Shown here: in pieces, positions 10,890 through 18,079 of the stretch
Numbering within the stretch: position 1 is the first letter of the stretch
Layout: each line of letters begins with the position of its first letter
NCBI GenBank assembly: GCA_041690355.1
Contig: JAWLHK010000017.1
Span: 62,001 to 92,474 of the forward strand
Direction: 5' to 3'
Source of the DNA: a bacterium
Lineage (GTDB): Bacteria; J088; JAWLBW01
Length of the DNA stretch: 30,474 nt
The notes under the pieces: generated by a model
Told to the model about the DNA's origin: nothing
Databases searched by the model: none
The model's input: only the letters and a program-made list of their open reading frames with translations
Made by a program: the position numbers and the translations under genes

Positions 10890-12449
10890 ATGAGCATTCT
10901 CTCGACGCAACAGCTGCTGCAGCCGATCGATCTGGATGAGGCGCTGCGGGAACCGCTGCCGCAGAAATTCGTGCGCGGCCTTTCGGCACCCGACTTCTAT
11001 TTCGCGCTTCAGGACGTGCGCGAAGATTCCCGCCGCGAGGCGCTCTCCCTCGCGCTCCCCGAGCAGGTGCAGGGGCTGTTCGATCTCGACGTGTGGACGG
11101 CGTCTGAAACCCTCGATCTGACTCGCGTGCGCGACTGGTTCGCCGGCCTGCTCGAGGCCATGCCCGAGGCGCGCGCCGCGATTCACCTGCGCCACCTCGA
11201 CCCGGAGCTGCTCGTCGCCATCGTCGTGTCGGAGTACACGGTCGTACCCATCGGTCCCGATTACGAGCGCGACGCGCCCGAGGACGAGGCCGACTGGCAG
11301 AGCCCCGACGGCAAGTTCTGGCTCTGGCGGCGCGCAACCCCCATCGGTCCGCAGGCCGAGCCCGCCGCCAAAGTGCTCGAGCTGCTGTACCGGGAGGATC
11401 CCGAGCTGGCCTATCACGTGCTTCTCCAGGCCGCCAACGGCCTCTACAGCGAGATGGAAGAGCTGGCCCGCCAGTTCCGCGAGGCGCGGCTGAACGACAT
11501 GGGCTTTCCCTCGCAGGAGACGGCCATCGATCTGTGGAACCCGCGCCGCCCCCGCCGGTTCGCGACCCCTGACATCGAGCAGCCGCCCGTGTTTGCCGCC
11601 GGAACCGTGCTGCGGCGGATGCGACTGCGGGAGCAGATCGAAGGCCTGCCCGCCGAGCGGCAGGAGTCCATCGCGGCCGAGCTCATTCTGCTCGCGAACG
11701 GCGCGCTCATCGGCGAGCCCGAGGCCATGCGTGACCGCCAGACCGTGGACGAGACGCTCTCGGTCGTGGCCGGATTTCTCGAGCTAGGGCTGGAGCTTCC
11801 CGAAGGGGCCGGGCTGCTCGCCACCGATCTCGTCCCCGTCTTCCAGCTCGGCCTGGGACGGGTGGCGCCGCTCGGACGCCGCGCCCGCGCGCTGATCGCC
11901 ACCGGCGCGTTCGATCGCTGGGGCGAGCGGCTCACGCTGCTTACTTCTGCCGAGGCAGACTTTCTCCGGCGGTTGGCCGCGCCGCGTCCGCGCTTCTGCG
12001 ATCCGGAGAGCGGCGACGTGGAGCCGTTCCGCACGGCCGAACAACTCGAAAAGGCTGAACGCCGGCTGACCGAACTGGAGAGCGCAGCGGTGTTCTTCTT
12101 CGGGCCCGGCGGGCTCGCCGCGGCATCCTCGGCGTGGCTCGATGAAACGGTGCTCCCCCCGCGTGAAGAACGCACGCTCGACACGCTTCTCGGGACGTAC
12201 TTCGCGCGCCTGATCCTGCGCCAGCCGGCCGGCGTCGAGCCGATCGCAGAGAAGGACGTGCGCACGCTGCTGCGCAACCTCGAGAACCTGCGCGGTTTCA
12301 GGGAGGGGCTGCAGAAGCTGGCGGGCGCAGAGACCCCGCTCGGCGCGTGGATGCACCGGCACGCCGATCGCTGGATTGACGATCTGCGCGGCGCCGCCGG
12401 CGACCCGCGCCTGGTCGCCACCGTGCTCTATCGCGCGGAAGGTGCGTGA
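10890..12449 (+). CDS. conserved hypothetical protein, DUF6178-like
   Basis: QVQGLFDLDVW and EMEELARQFREARLNDMGFP recall the deltaproteobacterial DUF6178 family (from memory, not searched). Confidence 0.6.
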   Translation: MSILSTQQLLQPIDLDEALREPLPQKFVRGLSAPDFYFALQDVREDSRREALSLALPEQVQGLFDLDVWTASETLDLTRVRDWFAGLLEAMPEARAAIHLRHLDPELLVAIVVSEYTVVPIGPDYERDAPEDEADWQSPDGKFWLWRRATPIGPQAEPAAKVLELLYREDPELAYHVLLQAANGLYSEMEELARQFREARLNDMGFPSQETAIDLWNPRRPRRFATPDIEQPPVFAAGTVLRRMRLREQIEGLPAERQESIAAELILLANGALIGEPEAMRDRQTVDETLSVVAGFLELGLELPEGAGLLATDLVPVFQLGLGRVAPLGRRARALIATGAFDRWGERLTLLTSAEADFLRRLAAPRPRFCDPESGDVEPFRTAEQLEKAERRLTELESAAVFFFGPGGLAAASSAWLDETVLPPREERTLDTLLGTYFARLILRQPAGVEPIAEKDVRTLLRNLENLRGFREGLQKLAGAETPLGAWMHRHADRWIDDLRGAAGDPRLVATVLYRAEGA

Positions 12450-13789
12450 ACGCGGCCCCGGAGCACAAGACCCTGCCGCTGGAGGTCGCCGCGCGCGACG
12501 GACGGGCGCGGCGGACGGTCGTGCGCATGCTGGCGGAGACGTCGGCCAACTGGGGCGCCGCCGAAAAGGCCGTCAACTTCATCGTGCGCCAGGAGACCGG
12601 GCTGCGCAGCACCGAGCGGCGCTTCGTCACCGAAACCACCTGGCGCATCCTGCGCCGCTGGACGCTGCTGCAGGAGCTTCGCAAGCGATTGCTGCCGGAG
12701 GCGGATCCGCACACGGCCGTCTACTTTCTCTATCTGGTGCTCGAGGCGGAACTTGATCCGGAGCTCGCCGCGGAACGCCTTGCTGAGAGCGGCGTGAGCG
12801 CCGATCCTGCCGCGTGGGCGGAGGCGCGCGACGAACTGCTGGCCGCGCAGGAGGCGTACGTCGCCTTTGCGCTGCGCCACGGCCTCCAGCCGTGGTATGC
12901 GGAAAAAGTGCTGCAGGCCTACGGCGACGAAGCGGGTCCGCTCTTCGCGGCCATGAACGAGCGCGCGCCCGTGACCGTCCGCGTGAACACCGCGCGCGCG
13001 ACCCGCGACGAGATGCTCGCGCGCCTGGCCGAAGAGGGGGCGGCGGCAGAGCCCACGCGCTGGTCGCCCTGGGGGATTCGCATCGCGGGCAACGTGAACG
13101 TGAACGCGCTCCCCAGCTGGCGCGCCGGCCTGCTCGATCTGCAGGACGAGGGGAGCCAGCTGCTCGCGCTGCTCACCGACGTGCGCGCGGGACAGCAGGT
13201 CGCCGACCTGTGTGCCGGGGGCGGGGGAAAACTGGTGGCAATGGCCGCCATGGCGGGGCCCGCGGGGAAGCTCGTCGCCATGGATGCCGATCCGCGACGG
13301 CTCGCGTCGGCGCTGCAGCGCATGGGGCGGCTCGGTTTTCAGCGCCCGGATGACATCCACCTCCCCCGCGATCCCAGGCAGGCCGAGCGCAGGCTCACGC
13401 CGCTTCGCGAGCGCTTCGACCGCGTTCTGGTCGACGCGCCCTGTTCGGGCACGGGGGCCTGGCGCCGGCATCCGGCCGAGCGCTGGCGACTGCGTCCCGA
13501 GCACATCGAAACGAATCTGCGCAAGCAACGCGAGATCCTCAACAACGCGGCCCCTCTCGTGGCACCCGGCGGGCGGCTCGTCTACGCCACCTGCTCCATC
13601 CTGCCCGAAGAGAACGAACGGCAGGCCGAGGCGTTTCTGCAGACGCATCCGCAATTCACGCCGGTCGATGCCGCGGCCTTGCTGCCCCACGGCGATGCGT
13701 TCGGCGTACTGGGCACCCCCTGGTTTCGTGCCCTCCCGCATCGGCACGGCACTGACGGCTTCTTCGCCGCGGTCTTTGCCCGCCGCTGA
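12446..13789 (+). CDS. RsmB/NOP2/Sun family RNA m5C methyltransferase
   Basis: QDEGSQL, DLCAGGGGK, VDAPCSGTG, YATCS and DGFF motifs. GTGA overlap with the upstream stop. Confidence 0.92.
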   Translation: MNAAPEHKTLPLEVAARDGRARRTVVRMLAETSANWGAAEKAVNFIVRQETGLRSTERRFVTETTWRILRRWTLLQELRKRLLPEADPHTAVYFLYLVLEAELDPELAAERLAESGVSADPAAWAEARDELLAAQEAYVAFALRHGLQPWYAEKVLQAYGDEAGPLFAAMNERAPVTVRVNTARATRDEMLARLAEEGAAAEPTRWSPWGIRIAGNVNVNALPSWRAGLLDLQDEGSQLLALLTDVRAGQQVADLCAGGGGKLVAMAAMAGPAGKLVAMDADPRRLASALQRMGRLGFQRPDDIHLPRDPRQAERRLTPLRERFDRVLVDAPCSGTGAWRRHPAERWRLRPEHIETNLRKQREILNNAAPLVAPGGRLVYATCSILPEENERQAEAFLQTHPQFTPVDAAALLPHGDAFGVLGTPWFRALPHRHGTDGFFAAVFARR

Positions 13790-13890
13790 ATACCGCCGGT
13801 TCGCCTGGGCCCGGCCGGGCCGAGCGCTCCGGGGGGCAGGGGGCAGCGGAATGGTCCCTCCGATGACAAAAAGGTAAAATAATCGCCGTC

Positions 13891-14583
13891 ATGGTGTTAC
13901 GGCGTTTGCGTGACGAGGTGCGGGAGAAACGCATGCTCGTCGAGAGTTTTCTCGTGTTTCTCGGAGTGGCCGGGATTCTCGTGCCCATCGAGTTTTCCTA
14001 CTTCGCGCTGCAGGACTACCTCATCGCGGCGGGCGTTCCGGTAAACCACCCCGAGACGTGGCTGGACGCCCACATCCCGTTCATTCCCGAATTCATCTGG
14101 CCCTACTGGGCTTACTTCGGCTTTCTCGGCGTGAGCGTCTGGCTTCCGCGTAACCGCCATGATCTTGCCCGGCTGGCCGGCGGGCTTCTTTTCGTGCACT
14201 TTCTCGGGTTCGCCTCCTACCTGCTCTATCCCACGGCCATGCAGCGCATCGACATTGCCTGCGAATCGCTGTCGTGCGGGATGGTCGGCGCCATGTATCT
14301 GCTTGATCCCGGCTACGGGCTGTTTCCCAGCCTGCACGCTGCGTGCTCGGTCTACGTGATCATGTGCGCCTTTGCCTATCGCAGCGGCATCCGCTGGTTC
14401 GTCGCCGTTTTCGGCATGTCCATCGTCTTCGCGACCGTGCTCGTCAAGCAGCACTATATCGTCGATGTCCCCGCCGGCATCGTTCTGGGGATTGCGGGCG
14501 GACGCGCGGCCTGGGCGATCGTCGATCGCTACTACGAACGTTTTGCAAGGCGCCCCCTTCCAGACGGCGCTCTGCTACAATGA
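13891..14583 (+). CDS. PAP2-superfamily membrane protein (AUR1/IPC-synthase-like)
   Basis: Several TM segments, YLLYPT, FPSLH and KQHYIVD motifs. Alternative start ATG 13933 with GGGAG RBS. Confidence 0.8.
   Translation: MVLRRLRDEVREKRMLVESFLVFLGVAGILVPIEFSYFALQDYLIAAGVPVNHPETWLDAHIPFIPEFIWPYWAYFGFLGVSVWLPRNRHDLARLAGGLLFVHFLGFASYLLYPTAMQRIDIACESLSCGMVGAMYLLDPGYGLFPSLHAACSVYVIMCAFAYRSGIRWFVAVFGMSIVFATVLVKQHYIVDVPAGIVLGIAGGRAAWAIVDRYYERFARRPLPDGALLQ
14573..14581 (+). promoter_or_regulatory. extended -10 promoter (TGcTACAAT) for the leader ORF
   Basis: TG-N-TACAAT ending 6 nt before GTG 14588, which is leaderless geometry. No SD before the GTG. Confidence 0.55.
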
Positions 14584-14587
14584 TGGC

Positions 14588-15010
14588 GTGAACGCGAGCG
14601 CTTTCATGCGTCGATGCGGCGTCTGGGCTCTGCTGACCGTATGGGTCACGGGGCCGGTGTCTACCGCGTTCGCGCTCCTCCAGGCCGCCGCCGTGCCCGC
14701 GGCGCCGGCGCTCGTCTGCCATTGCCCGCACCATGAATCCGCCGGCGAGCACGCGGGACATGCGGCGCACCCCCACGGTGGCGCCGGCGCGGGCGCTGCA
14801 TCCGCCGCCGGCCATCTTCCCGACGGCCCCGTGTGGGCTCCCTGCGATACCGCGGCCGACGGCGCGCCCGCCTGGGCGTCAACGCCGGTTCTGATGCCGC
14901 CGTCCACGCTACCCGTCCTCCCCGGATCAGAGCGGACTTTCCGTTCGATCGCGAAATCACAGTTCGCTTCCCGCGACCTGCTTCCCGACATCCCGCCTCC
15001 GCGCGGCTGA
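14588..15010 (+). CDS. Cys/His-rich exported leader protein with C-terminal PPPR (CutF/DUF2946-like putative arrest peptide)
   Basis: GTG 14588 (or ATG 14606). Hydrophobic N-terminus, CHCPHH, EHAGHAAHPH, a further Cys, and a Pro-rich tail ending PDIPPPRG-stop. Confidence 0.7.
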   Translation: MNASAFMRRCGVWALLTVWVTGPVSTAFALLQAAAVPAAPALVCHCPHHESAGEHAGHAAHPHGGAGAGAASAAGHLPDGPVWAPCDTAADGAPAWASTPVLMPPSTLPVLPGSERTFRSIAKSQFASRDLLPDIPPPRG

Positions 15011-15228
15011 TCACTCCCCGTTCGTCGATCCCATTGTTACCCGGCGCAGCAGTCCCTCACGGGCGTGAAGGGCTGCGCGCACAGGCACCGTGCGTCTGCA
15101 CGCCGGCCGCAGCCTTTCTGCGCGCTGGCGGAGACCGTGCGTCCTGTCTGCGGTCTCTGCATCGTGCGCAAGAAGTCCAGCGTGCCCGCAGGGACCGGTC
15201 TGCGTACCTTTTCGATTCAGGAGTGATC
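15009..15228 (+). promoter_or_regulatory. structured intercistronic RNA with anti-SD/SD pairing
   Basis: GATCACTCC (15009-15017) is the exact reverse complement of GGAGTGATC (15220-15228), the SD region of ATG 15230. GC-rich hairpins lie between them. Confidence 0.65.
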
Positions 15229-15229
15229 C

Positions 15230-15709
15230 ATGAGGACCCGTATTCTTTCTGTCACTTTCGTGCTCGCGCTCAGCGCCTGCGGCTCCGATTTCCCCCTACC
15301 TGCCGACGAAGCCTGCACGGCCACGGCCGGCGAAACCCACATCGCCGAAGCCGATGCTTCCCCTTCGGGCCATTCCGTCATGCTGCACGTCGTCGGCAGC
15401 ACCTGCGTCGTCGCCGGCGACAACGTGCTGCGCCTCGTTCCCCGGAAAGAGGGCATGACCATGCATTCGGAATTCCGCCCGCAGTCCGACACCATGGCGG
15501 CCGAACACCCCATGATTACCGGGATATCGCTCACCATGCCCTCCATGGGGCACGGGCCGGCCGAAGAGCCGGTGATTGATAAGGATGCGCACAATACCTT
15601 CACGGCCGCCTTTCAGATGCCGGGCGCGTGGCGCGCCGAAGTGACCTTCTACTTCCACGACATGACCGATGTCGCGCAGAAGGCGGTCTTCGACTTCACC
15701 GTGCACTGA
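15230..15709 (+). CDS. YtkA/FixH-like lipoprotein, Met/His-rich
   Basis: Lipobox LSAC. MPSMGHG and FQMPGAW motifs typical of YtkA-like Ig-fold proteins. RBS AGGAG. Confidence 0.75.
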   Translation: MRTRILSVTFVLALSACGSDFPLPADEACTATAGETHIAEADASPSGHSVMLHVVGSTCVVAGDNVLRLVPRKEGMTMHSEFRPQSDTMAAEHPMITGISLTMPSMGHGPAEEPVIDKDAHNTFTAAFQMPGAWRAEVTFYFHDMTDVAQKAVFDFTVH

Positions 15710-16617
15710 TGCGCAACGTCGCGGTATTTCTCACGGCGCTCCTCCTTGCGGGGGGCGCCGCACTTCCCCTTCCGGCTGCGGCGGCAAGCTGCTGTGGCGG
15801 CGCGGGGAATACCGATCTGTTCGGCCTGCCGAAGTGGCAGTCGGGCGTGGCCGGTTCGGCCGTGCAGATCGAACACACGACGGGGGTCCGTGATGCCGCA
15901 GGCCGGCAGGTGCAAGGGGGCCCGTGGCAGACGACCGATGTACGGGGCCTCGTGTCAGGGGCCTGGCGCGTGCATGCCGACGGCCAGGCACATCTCACCA
16001 TCCCCTGGGTTGCGCGCTCGGTGGATGCGGGCGCGCAGGCCGCACGGGGCAACGGCCTCGGCGATCTGGGCGCGCAGTACCGATACGAGTTCATGGACGA
16101 AGAGACCTGCTTCGCGCGGCCGGTCGAGAGCATGCGCTGGGACGAGGTGAAGCCGTCGATACACGGCCTCGTGCGCGCCACGGCGCCGACGGGCCGATCG
16201 GCGGCGCTCCGGGGCGACCCCCTCGGGGCGTCGATCACGGGGCGCGGCCTGTGGATTGCCGACGCCGGAATCGAGGCGACCAAGATCTGGGGCCGCTTCG
16301 GCAACAGCCTCGCGCTCACCGGCGGACGCCAGTGGGGCGCTACGTCATCTACCGCAGACGCCTGGCGGTGGGAAGCCGCAACGGGAGTCCTCTACTACTT
16401 CCGCTACCAGGGATCGGCGGGGATCTTTGTCGGCCATCGGCGCGAGATCGGCGACGTGGGGGTCGCCGTGCGCTCGACGACGCTTTCGCTCAACACGACC
16501 CACGTGGTGTGGACCGACTGGTGGCTTCGCGCCACGGCCGGTACGGCAGGCGTTCTCGAAGGCCGCAACACGCCGGTGACGTGGACGGGGGGCGTGGCCT
16601 TGGGGAAACTCTTTTAG
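15709..16617 (+). CDS. outer-membrane beta-barrel, MetA-pathway/'transporter'-like, with N-terminal Cys-Cys
   Basis: TGATG coupling to the upstream gene. Signal peptide then SCCGG, GLGDLGAQYRY and APTG motifs, amphipathic strands and C-terminal Phe. Confidence 0.65.
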   Translation: MRNVAVFLTALLLAGGAALPLPAAAASCCGGAGNTDLFGLPKWQSGVAGSAVQIEHTTGVRDAAGRQVQGGPWQTTDVRGLVSGAWRVHADGQAHLTIPWVARSVDAGAQAARGNGLGDLGAQYRYEFMDEETCFARPVESMRWDEVKPSIHGLVRATAPTGRSAALRGDPLGASITGRGLWIADAGIEATKIWGRFGNSLALTGGRQWGATSSTADAWRWEAATGVLYYFRYQGSAGIFVGHRREIGDVGVAVRSTTLSLNTTHVVWTDWWLRATAGTAGVLEGRNTPVTWTGGVALGKLF

Positions 16618-16730
16618 AGTGACGAGTGACGAGTCAGGGCAATTGACGATTTACAATTGACGATTGACGATTTTCAGGAAAGGGTGCACGTCAGCGCCCG
16701 GACCGATGACTGGCGACTGTTGACTGGCGA
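16617..16730 (+). repeat. composite heptamer tract (GAGTGAC)n + (ATTGACG/ATTTACA)n + (GACTGGC)n
   Basis: gagtgacgagtgacgagtc..caattgacgatttacaattgacgattgacgatt..gactggcgactgttgactggcga, between convergent genes. Confidence 0.85.
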
Positions 16731-16738
16731 AGCCGCCC

Positions 16739-18079
16739 TCAGAGAAACCGGGCGAGGTCGACGTTGCGCACTGCCGGGTCGACGGTGGCTACGATGCGGC
16801 GCGTGATGCCGCGCGCGCGGGCCTGATCGGTCGCCAGGTCGACGAGTTCCGGCTCGGTCAGGTAATTGCCGTGGGCGTCCATGATCACCTTGACCTGCGG
16901 CAGATCCTGGGCCTGCGGGTTGCTGGCGAACACCAGCGCGAGCTCGTTCGTGTTGAGGCGGACGAGAGAGCCGACCGGGTACATGCCGAGCATCTTGATG
17001 AAGACGTCCAGGTATTCGGGATGCAGGGCTTTGGCCTTGAGGCGCTGCATGACGTCGATGGCCTCTTTCGGCTCGAAGCGCTTCTGGTACGGACGTAGCG
17101 TCGTCATCGAATCGTAGCAGTCGCCGACCGACGTAATCTCGGAGTATGGGAGCAGCGCCTTTTCCCACTTCGGATATCCCGTGTGGTCATAGCGCACGTG
17201 ATGCGTCAGGACACTGACGATGATCTCCTCGCGAATCGCCGAACCCATCTGTTTGAGAATGCGCGCGCTCTCGACGGGGTGCGTCTGCATGAGTTTCCAC
17301 TCTTCGTCGGTCAGCTTGCCCGGCTTGTTGATGACGCCGAGCGGAATGCGGCACTTGCCCACGTCATGCAGCAGCCCAGACAGCCCTGCGAGCATGGCGT
17401 CTTCCTGGCTGAATCCGAGCTCGGTCGCGAGTGCGAGCGAGAAGACGCCGACGTTCACCGAGTGGTTGAACGTGTAGTTGTCGTAATCGCTGAGCAGGGT
17501 GAGGCCCATGAGCGCGTCACGGTCTTCGAGGATGATGTCCTGCAGGCCTTTCGTGATCTCGAAGGCCCGCTCACCCTTGGGCATGGCCCCGGTGCGGTCT
17601 TCCTTCATGATGTCGAGGATGAAGTTCTTGGCGTCGCTGTAGACCTTGCGGGCCTTCTCGCGGATGTCTTCGTCTTCGACGGTGATCTCGATGCGCGTGA
17701 CCGACCGGCTCTTGAGAAACTCGCCGATATCCTTCCACGCGGCCATGGCGTCGGTGCCGGCGCTGAGCACCTCGACCAGCACGGTCATCTCTTCTTCGGT
17801 CACCCCCCGGTGGATGACGATTTCGGAGATGCGCCGATCTTCGAGGGCCTCGCGCAGTTCGACGTGTACGGTCGCATCGTCATAAAAGGGCTCGCCCTCG
17901 AAGACGAGAACGTCTTCGACGATCGCCAGCGACAGCCGGCCGCGCTTCGTAAGCAGCGGCTTCAGAAGCTGGTGCGCACGGGTAACGGGCTGGGTTCGCG
18001 AGGGGTGCCGGGGCGGGTAGTAGTTCACCGCCTTGACGGCGCCCAGCAGGTTCATGAAAATCGGCTGTGCTTCTTTCAT
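16739..18079 (-). CDS. HD-GYP cyclic dinucleotide phosphodiesterase
   Basis: HSVNV, HDVGK, HP, HHVRYDHTGYP and D..D.MT..RPY motifs. Uncharacterised N-terminal domain. Confidence 0.9.
   Translation of the reverse strand: MKEAQPIFMNLLGAVKAVNYYPPRHPSRTQPVTRAHQLLKPLLTKRGRLSLAIVEDVLVFEGEPFYDDATVHVELREALEDRRISEIVIHRGVTEEEMTVLVEVLSAGTDAMAAWKDIGEFLKSRSVTRIEITVEDEDIREKARKVYSDAKNFILDIMKEDRTGAMPKGERAFEITKGLQDIILEDRDALMGLTLLSDYDNYTFNHSVNVGVFSLALATELGFSQEDAMLAGLSGLLHDVGKCRIPLGVINKPGKLTDEEWKLMQTHPVESARILKQMGSAIREEIIVSVLTHHVRYDHTGYPKWEKALLPYSEITSVGDCYDSMTTLRPYQKRFEPKEAIDVMQRLKAKALHPEYLDVFIKMLGMYPVGSLVRLNTNELALVFASNPQAQDLPQVKVIMDAHGNYLTEPELVDLATDQARARGITRRIVATVDPAVRNVDLARFL

Follow-up and report, generated by a model that had tools for sequence, protein, structure and literature searches.

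The window examined here, a 30,474-nucleotide (nt) stretch of bacterial DNA (assembly GCA_041690355.1, contig JAWLHK010000017.1, positions 62,001 to 92,474 of the forward strand), carries a small open reading frame (ORF) for a putatively exported Cys/His-rich protein, followed by genes for a CrdA/YtkA-like lipoprotein and an outer-membrane barrel-like protein (Table 1). The ORF ends with a run of prolines shortly before its stop codon, and a sequence overlapping this stop codon is complementary to the lipoprotein gene's Shine-Dalgarno (SD) sequence. An earlier note on this DNA had proposed that the ORF is a metal-sensing leader, in which a ribosome paused on the prolines covers the anti-SD and thereby frees the SD. 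Here the ORF is weighed as a candidate leader of the type known from the copper-related protein CutF; what the note described in the sequence was confirmed, and its interpretation found support in part.

Table 1. Features of the leader, lipoprotein and barrel locus, in window positions (aa, amino acids; MFE, minimum free energy structure).
Feature	Position	Strand	Remarks
Leader ORF	14606..15010	+	134 aa, ATG 14606 to TGA 15008-15010; putatively exported Cys/His-rich protein, tail PPPRG
Signal-peptide-like or membrane-anchor N-terminus	14606..14692	+	Residues 1-29; MRR, then a hydrophobic stretch
CHCPHH motif	14717..14734	+	Residues 38-43; CPHH invariant in 5/5 leaders
LPDGPVWAPCD motif	14816..14848	+	Contains the last Cys, C80; last Pro 52 residues further on
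C-terminal PPPRG	14993..15007	+	Codons CCG CCT CCG CGC GGC; PPP = 14993-15001; candidate ribosome pause or arrest motif
Anti-SD arm GATCACTCC / GAUCACUCC	15009..15017	+	Covers the last two bases of the leader stop (15008-15010)
Second closing helix, 5' arm GUCGA	15024..15028	+	Pairs with 15212-15216 in MFE and centroid
GC-rich structured intergenic core	15029..15211	+	Contains local hairpin 15044-15080; would bring both ends together
Second closing helix, 3' arm UCGAU	15212..15216	+	Pairs with 15024-15028 in MFE and centroid
SD arm of lipoprotein gene GGAGTGATC / GGAGUGAUC	15220..15228	+	Two bases upstream of ATG 15230
Lipoprotein gene	15230..15709	+	159 aa; lipobox LSAC; invariant MPSMGHG; CrdA/YtkA-like beta-sandwich
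Outer-membrane barrel-like gene	15709..16617	+	ATG overlaps the lipoprotein stop (TGATG)

The leader gene and its relatives

An alternative in-frame start of the leader, GTG at 14588, would give a protein of 140 aa; ATG 14606 was taken as the start because all four relatives of the leader align from there. The ORF of about 140 aa in the earlier note is thus right in frame and tail but too long. The hydrophobic N-terminus, the CHCPHH and the His-rich content that it had described are all present (VCHCPHH, eight His), and its positions for the PPP codons and the PPPRG-stop tail were exact. Kyte-Doolittle hydropathy in 19-residue windows reaches 1.54 at the N-terminus, and an AlphaFold2 (AF2) model made from the five-sequence alignment has a helix at residues 2-29 as its sole confidently predicted element (predicted local distance difference test, pLDDT, 79-87). 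Residues 43-126 have pLDDT below 50, and the protein is predicted to be unstructured after the N-terminal helix. The window leader is missing from the protein collections searched, and has therefore apparently never been called as a gene. In a Pfam search none of the five leaders matches any family at E<=10.

Relatives were sought in 60 other genomes, one of them from the same family and three from the same phylum; one same-phylum genome record carries the label Candidatus Dadabacteria. Four relatives of the window leader have been found, all in kin of this deep-branching lineage, which makes five leaders in total. G001, from the same family, and G004 have a syntenic cluster of leader, lipoprotein and barrel genes. 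In G002 the leader is not visible because the contig begins 14 nt before the ATG of the lipoprotein gene. Among 1.84 billion representatives searched with a profile there were five matches, which added two leaders, P0003 on a 681-nt ENA contig and P0004 on a 1502-nt Logan contig. Two of the five, long repetitive proteins (1711 and 3442 aa, with many short stretches), were set aside as low-complexity matches. A word-indexed search found no homologues with the single leader protein and only three of the known leaders with the five-sequence profile, a scan of genome contigs found only the three genomes already known, and a first metagenome scan, made with the barrel alignment, found nothing.

The five leaders have in common a hydrophobic N-terminus, the invariant CPHH (as C-x-C-P-H-H or D-C-P-H-H), a later Cys motif (a single Cys or C-R-C) and a near-terminal proline run. 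Their tails are IPPPRG, SPPPRTA, PPPPRQT, APPPLV and APPISF, and every proline run ends two to three residues before the stop; PP is invariant (5/5) and PPP is present in four. The last Cys and the last Pro are separated by 52, 51, 54, 51 and 55 residues, although the sequence between them is poorly conserved, and the distance from CPHH to the prolines ranges from 92 to 145 residues. The five sequences are few and related, so the constant Cys-to-Pro spacing could also be due to common ancestry. Indels in the leader alignment occur in multiples of three. Three of the five proteins are shorter than 150 aa, with 188 aa in G001 and 151 aa in P0004. As judged from these alignments, the leader ORF is a real conserved gene, with the export-type N-terminus, Cys/His motifs and conserved C-terminal proline run that the earlier note had picked out.

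A predicted long-range helix between the leader stop and the lipoprotein start

The GATCACTCC at the leader stop is the exact reverse complement of the GGAGTGATC at the lipoprotein start, as had been claimed, and the complementarity of GTCGA and TCGAT is likewise correct. Both helices are found in the MFE and the centroid when 14980-15245 is folded (-115.2 kcal/mol, z -1.87), and also when the fold is confined to 15005-15235 (-109.1 kcal/mol, z -2.90, matched by one of 200 shuffles). The anti-SD:SD helix is thus present in the low-energy folds in which the earlier note had said to look for it, and about 9.3 base pairs (bp) are expected in the ensemble between the SD region and the leader stop region. 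The hairpin that had been placed near 15044-15078 is strong in isolation (15044-15080, -25.5 kcal/mol, z -3.55, matched by 0 of 200 shuffles), but it is rearranged in the global MFE, where 15044-15080 pairs with 15190-15210 instead of forming the local hairpin.

Chance pairing was assessed between 28 nt around the leader stop and 26 nt around the lipoprotein start, in a genome with a GC content of 65.6%. A perfect Watson-Crick helix of at least 9 bp occurs in 68 of 20000 random genome segment pairs of the same geometry (0.0034), and 18 of 5000 dinucleotide-shuffled versions of the window locus have one (0.0036). The complement at 15009 is the sole one of at least 7 nt to the initiation region within 14000-15700.

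The spacer from leader stop to lipoprotein start is 219 nt in the window, 129 nt in G001 and 154 nt in G004. An Rfam scan of 14300-15500 at E<=10 gave four sub-threshold chance matches only. A repeat or mobile-element origin was rejected, as a genome-wide BLAST search with the 219-nt spacer recovered no sequence other than the query. Within the spacer, at 15187-15213, there is a weak terminator-like hairpin made of CGCAGGGACCGGTCTGCG and then TACCTTTTCG, immediately ahead of the closing helices' 3' arms.

Recurrence of the helix at other loci

A uniform test was applied to nine loci, in which the longest Watson-Crick helix between stop-45..+17 and start-20..+5 was compared with 2000 dinucleotide shuffles. 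The longest helix is 9 bp in the window (reached by 14/2000 shuffles), 9 bp with one additional GU pair in G001 (5/2000), 8 bp in G004 (45/2000) and 10 bp in L037 (2/2000). At L031, L026, L032, L033 and L027 it is 5-6 bp, which 452 to 1883 of 2000 shuffles reach. A rare helix of different sequence is therefore seen in three of the eight loci outside the window (shuffle p 0.001-0.02). The earlier note had looked to homologous loci for conserved PPR tails and for covariation of the pairing; the proline pair is conserved throughout (5/5 leaders), and the helix recurs at these three of eight loci.

In the MFE of G001, GCAUAACCGU, which lies over the leader stop UAA, pairs with ACGGUUAUGU, which lies over the first AUG of the lipoprotein gene. 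This pairing (nine Watson-Crick pairs and one GU) has a sequence wholly unlike that of the window and was reached by 3/5000 shuffles. A helix of the same design and different sequence in a sister genus agrees with the long-range architecture that had been described for the window. G004 fails a narrow-window helix test (3 bp); here the partner of the SD GGAAGGA is the UCCUUCC of the LLP codons, which lies 29-35 nt ahead of the stop, and the two make up the outer end of a long helix.

A second metagenome scan, made with the lipoprotein alignment, found 14 distant loci with YtkA-like relatives. Four of these have too little upstream DNA, and in seven of the ten that can be assessed a small Cys-rich ORF with a hydrophobic N-terminus and a PP tail lies directly upstream, the other three being without one. 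The PP-tailed ORFs are complete in L026, L027, L031, L032, L033 and L037 and partial, at a contig end, in L024. They belong to no Pfam family, and in the one case compared, the leader profile against the leader-like ORF of L037, homology was not shown (hhalign probability 0.3%). The distant PP-tailed ORFs may represent a large unannotated set of CutF-like leaders. The distant lipoproteins themselves are YtkA-like with tandem domains and bear the motif TMPSMGHGSPNN. The same-strand ORFs upstream of them are about 120-135 aa long, with PP in the last ten residues and Cys motifs such as C-x-N-K...C-x-G-K-C, or HHGSCHCGC in L037.

In the tail of the L037 ORF, PEPPEKPPELA, the Pro-Pro-Glu codons CCUCCUGAA are present twice (2051-2073), and both copies are exactly complementary to UUCAGGAGG (2381-2389), the SD region of the lipoprotein gene 317 nt downstream. 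From the sequence, the proline codons of L037 would themselves act as the anti-SD.

The lipoprotein and barrel genes

Neither of the two downstream proteins matches Pfam or NCBIfam, and at E<=1 the lipoprotein has no match to Pfam including YtkA (PF13115). Its profile aligns with a PF13115-positive relative, that of L037, with an hhalign probability of 96.8% (E 3e-10), and about 29 close relatives are known. AF2 predicts a confident beta-sandwich (pLDDT 76.5) from a four-sequence alignment, which is as shallow as that of the leader. The best structural match is Helicobacter pylori CrdA (9ll4_A; Z 10.3, root-mean-square deviation 3.0, 101 of 106 residues), followed by FetP/P19/FtrA (Z 7-8.8) and PcoC/CopC (Z 5.7-5.9), and the best Foldseek E-value is 1.3e-3. 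The model suggests that the lipoprotein shares the fold of solved copper-binding periplasmic proteins, a fold which alone does not establish metal binding.

In the ESM Atlas the barrel protein is placed, at 0.97, with outer-membrane clusters that partly carry Phenol_MetA_deg (15% of members, a lead only). Because the lipoprotein resembles copper-binding proteins and the barrel resembles outer-membrane clusters, the two are plausibly an envelope copper-handling pair, as far as sequence and models can indicate. The barrel protein also has an invariant ASCCGGA right after its signal sequence, and D-E-E/D-T-C and K-P-S/T motifs are likewise kept in all four homologues. The paired Cys at the mature N-terminus of the barrel might serve metal binding, lipidation or modification.

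Comparison with CutF, CruR and other systems

CutF is an exported protein with a CxxxC motif and is encoded by the first gene of the Rhodobacter capsulatus cutFOG operon. Its C-terminus is P109-EPEGPPPRL-118, and the PPP has been reported to be required for regulation (PMC9973294; 10.1101/2025.02.05.636593). Copper-dependent translation of cutO is described as requiring the PPP, the signal peptide and an anti-SD stem-loop, and the CutF protein is reported to be undetectable in vivo (PMC9973294; 10.1101/2025.02.05.636593). The earlier note had compared the window leader with CutF, and aptly so, given the tails GPPPRL and IPPPRG. Each is a small first gene whose product is exported (by prediction in the window) and carries a Cys metal motif, each has PPPR and one further residue before the stop, and in each an RNA structure with an anti-SD (again predicted in the window) shields the SD of the next gene, with a cargo that serves metal homeostasis in CutF and plausibly does so in the window. 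They differ in that CutF has CxxxC whereas the window leader has CxCPHH and a lone Cys, and in that the shield of CutF is described as a compact local stem-loop, whereas that of the window is a stop-anchored long-range helix across 202 nt. The cargo also differs, being a multicopper oxidase in one and a CrdA/YtkA-like lipoprotein with a barrel in the other.

A set of 5,334 CutF-like proteins has been assembled, with iterative searches that started from CutF and its clusters, by requiring a length below 150 aa, PP among the 15 C-terminal residues, a signal peptide and, no more than 1000 nt away, a neighbour on the same strand (PMC9973294). Their stalling is described as dependent on metal, export and EF-P. 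The window leader has 134 aa, PP in the last 15 residues (as have all five leaders) and a neighbour 219 nt away. For the signal peptide, it shows the hydrophobic N-terminus and the predicted helix described above. CutF-like proteins carry Cys, His or mixed motifs and have varied metal-related neighbours (Ozturk et al. 2023, PMC9973294). The claim in the earlier note that sensor, architecture and cargo all differ from the known systems was therefore overstated for the sensor and for the cargo, which resembles copper proteins, but holds for the long-range helix. The main text of Ozturk et al. 2023 (PMC9973294) does not mention YtkA, although its supplements, and those of the CruR paper, may list such neighbours or related Bacteroidota clusters. 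CutF-like spacers are said there to be mostly below 100 nt, and it is argued that stalling-driven unfolding is likely limited to short spacers (PMC9973294).

CruR (Bp2923) of Bordetella pertussis belongs to DUF2946, and its CXXC and RAPP motifs are 45 residues apart (Roy et al. 2022, PMC9426467). It is reported to act through Rho-dependent termination, with copper relieving the arrest, and DUF2946 genes to generally precede long intergenic regions (PMC9426467). CutF and CruR are described as responding to copper in opposite directions (PMC9973294). Like the window leader, for which the copper link and the export signal are putative, CruR is the product of the first gene of a copper-related operon, with an export signal, a Cys motif and a proline motif near the C-terminus, and it shares a conserved Cys-to-Pro distance and a long intergenic region. 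The spacing of 45 and the RAPP of CruR differ from the spacing of 51-55 and the PPP(R/L) of the window family, where an SD-sequestering helix is predicted. The search of the five leaders with the DUF2946 model (PF11162), which the earlier note had put forward, gave no match at E<=10, and a six-frame search of the window's genome gave nothing at the leader and nothing above the cut-off anywhere. A protein of G004, which served as positive control, reaches 30 bits. CXXC is present in none of the five leaders and RAPP in none of their tails, though the proline position is similar (two to three residues before the end). The leader alignment, compared with this true DUF2946/RAPP protein, gave an hhalign probability of 3.7%. 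The leader is therefore classed as CutF-like in its presumed action and not as a demonstrated DUF2946 member, because it falls within the CutF-like filters for length, PP and neighbour distance, shares the PPPR tail and failed the DUF2946 sequence tests. The G004 protein (L023:1483-1866, minus strand) has CIQC and the tail SRAPPLYATI and is encoded 6 nt upstream of a 428-aa ORF without a Pfam match. Its sequence indicates that a CruR-type family coexists with the new leader family in the same phylum.

Two further kinds of system bear comparison. In SecM-secA, export force modulates the arrest, as is proposed here (10.1101/2025.02.05.636593). SecM differs in that it monitors secretion activity and has another arrest sequence, whereas the window has metal-related cargo and a long-range helix. 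RNA-unfolding coupling over tens of nt has been established for rpmI-rplT, at +52 nt, and for MS2 coat-lysis (PMC12548453). In these, as in the proposal for the window, translation at the end of the upstream gene disrupts distant silencing pairs, but they are described with neither an exported sensor leader nor a proline arrest motif, and the +52 nt compares with 219 nt in the window.

Proposed mechanism and its weighing

We propose that the leader is a CutF-type cis-acting element which controls the lipoprotein and barrel genes through the long-range SD-sequestering helix, and we judge this proposal to be evenly balanced between right and wrong. The leader, lipoprotein and barrel genes would form a three-gene operon. 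As long as the mRNA is free, the long-range helix, whose 5' arm overlaps the leader stop, would lock up the lipoprotein gene's SD, and the structured 200-nt spacer would keep both arms together. A ribosome at the last codons of the leader would melt the helix; since melting would be needed, the lipoprotein gene would be initiated only while the leader 3' end is occupied, and translation of the barrel would follow through the overlapping TGATG. The PPPR, two residues before the stop, would slow the ribosome at exactly the point of melting, with the nascent leader under export and its last Cys trailing the stall site by a constant 51-55 residues. The dwell time of the ribosome would then be set at the Cys/His motifs, either by a bound metal, which would most likely be copper, or by the formation of a disulfide. 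The conservation of the gene, its motifs and spacing, the prediction and recurrence of the helix and the kind of cargo are shown here and speak for the proposal, as do the predicted disorder of the leader after its helix, the rarity of the window helix, the footprint results for the window and G001 given below, and the PP-tailed ORFs upstream of distant YtkA-like relatives. Pausing, export and the direction of regulation are what we infer for the window, and metal dependence is wholly conjectural.

How far a ribosome would open the helix was modelled with a footprint of 28 nt, in place of forcing all upstream bases to be single-stranded. When the footprint is placed on the last Pro or on the stop, opening the initiation region is predicted to cost 9.1 instead of 12.8 kcal/mol in the window, and 3.5 instead of 6.0 kcal/mol in G001. 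Covering the anti-SD, as the earlier note had it, would thus free the initiation region only in part at equilibrium. The ribosomal helicase site is pictured near +11. The 5' arm of the helix begins at +11 (window) or +10 (G001), counted from the first base of the codon for the last Pro, and a ribosome that pauses while its P site holds the second or third Pro would then abut the helix. The picture in the earlier note of a PPP-paused ribosome covering the anti-SD hence does not fit well, as the geometry is marginal and the arm lies at the leading edge of the ribosome rather than underneath it.

This geometry is one of several observations that weigh against the proposed mechanism. By the model, most of the helix would not be opened until the ribosome reaches the final two codons or terminates, and pausing may therefore either prolong or delay exposure of the SD. 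The gain at equilibrium is just 2.5-3.7 kcal/mol in two loci and absent in the third, G004, where the opening cost is unchanged by the footprint (10.1 to 10.3 kcal/mol) and the anti-SD lies outside the footprint of a ribosome on the PPP. In the window, covering the anti-SD is predicted to let the SD re-pair weakly with part of the lipoprotein coding region (15250-15257), and the equilibrium gain there is therefore modest. Five of the nine loci have no significant exact helix. The ensemble pairing between leader end and initiation region is equalled by shuffled leader 3' segments in 9/60 cases for the window, 3/60 for G001, 16/60 for G004, 8/60 for L037 and 2/60 for L031. This measure discriminates poorly because a fragment that folds tends to have its ends paired in any case, and the exact-helix tests were relied on in its place. 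No clear SD was seen at the leader's own start, the leaders of G001 and P0004 exceed the 150-aa filter for CutF-like proteins, and the leaders have no detectable homology to DUF2946.

The proposal can be taken further, to a separate lineage outside DUF2946, with transmembrane ribosome-stalling metal sensors having arisen, or diverged beyond recognition, several times. In this extension, the 51-55-residue ruler would put the sensing Cys outside the membrane while the PPPR is at the peptidyl-transferase centre, the read-out would be a termination-gated 200-nt helix anchored on the leader's own stop, and the lipoprotein and barrel would be a previously undescribed copper-handling pair. As the proline codons of L037 would be the anti-SD, a single CCUCCU stretch would there encode both the stall site and the RNA switch. 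Taken in full, we regard this as somewhat doubtful and put it forward tentatively.

Alternative explanations

The same arrangement could reflect plain RNA-unfolding translational coupling without sensing, the leader being a disordered His/Cys-rich secreted metal buffer or chaperone with a proline tail that is structural or incidental. Coupling of this kind has the precedents of rpmI-rplT and MS2 (PMC12548453), any terminating ribosome would open the helix, paused or not, and TGATG couples the lipoprotein gene in turn to the barrel gene. The His-rich segment, from CPHH to the prolines, also varies in length as metal-buffering tails do. It is harder to see in such an account why the proline run should be two to three residues from the stop in all five leaders, why the Cys-to-Pro distance should be constant despite poor sequence conservation, or why unrelated PP-tailed Cys-rich ORFs should recur upstream of distant lipoprotein homologues. 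The tail is, moreover, nearly identical to the PPPRL of CutF that is required by experiment, and we consider coupling without sensing unlikely. If there were no regulatory link at all, the 9-bp complement would be a coincidence in GC-rich DNA, the lipoprotein gene would have its own promoter in the spacer and the leader would be an independent secreted protein. The weak ensemble-pairing control and the five of nine loci without a significant helix are compatible with this. Any SD complement resembles the 3' end of 16S rRNA, and the likeness of the anti-SD to that end is thus expected in any case. The exact helix is nevertheless rare by two nulls and recurs with different sequences in three of eight independent loci, the adjacency of leader and lipoprotein genes is kept across phyla, and no sigma-70-like promoter was found in 13700-16800 by a crude scan, which may not suit this lineage. 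We therefore think the absence of any link quite unlikely.

Attenuation of the CruR kind, in which arrest at the leader C-terminus would shield the spacer from Rho or an intrinsic terminator and the SD helix would be secondary, is the account to which we give least weight, as very improbable. CruR works in this way and DUF2946 genes generally precede long intergenic regions (PMC9426467), in line with the long spacers seen here (219, 129 and 154 nt). The same phylum does contain a true DUF2946/RAPP ORF upstream of another gene, the weak terminator-like hairpin with TACCTTTTCG lies inside the window spacer at 15187-15204, and C (35%) is slightly above G (31%) in that spacer. In G004, however, G (39%) exceeds C (27%), and the terminator-like sites in the region are as many as expected from shuffling (two found, shuffle mean 2.0). 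Strong RNA structure is unfavourable for Rho loading, and the spacer is strongly structured (z -2.9). The motif is also PPPR, as in CutF, and not RAPP.

Neighbouring genes

In G001 a response regulator, of the OmpR type by eye, lies on the same strand 48 nt upstream of the cluster (L006:22-729), and in G004 a single-domain receiver response regulator (L008:2672-3043) adjoins the cluster divergently. The upstream neighbours in the window are RsmB and a PAP2 phosphatase rather than a response regulator, with a DUF6178 protein (10890-12449, E 1.5e-69) directly upstream of the RsmB-like methyltransferase. Downstream, a convergent gene (16739-18079, minus strand) encodes a protein with an HDVGK...GYP-type sequence, HD-GYP-like by eye.

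Significance

To our knowledge, no nascent exported proteins that signal periplasmic copper to the ribosome have been studied other than CutF and CruR, which are both assigned to DUF2946. New here are the sequence family, the long-range helix anchored on a stop codon, the cargo of a CrdA/YtkA-like lipoprotein with a barrel, and the lineage. If the CutF-type reading of the window leader is true, this design would exist outside DUF2946, in an uncultured lineage that branches deeply and is related to Candidatus Dadabacteria. It would also tolerate a spacer of 200 nt, since the local stem-loop gives way to a long-range helix, and this would contradict the expectation that stalling-driven unfolding needs short spacers. 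The constant distance from Cys to proline would be a shared design rule of such sensors, and the small, Pfam-less, PP-tailed and Cys-rich ORFs upstream of YtkA-like lipoproteins would be an under-annotated set. The lipoprotein and barrel would then be a candidate envelope copper system.

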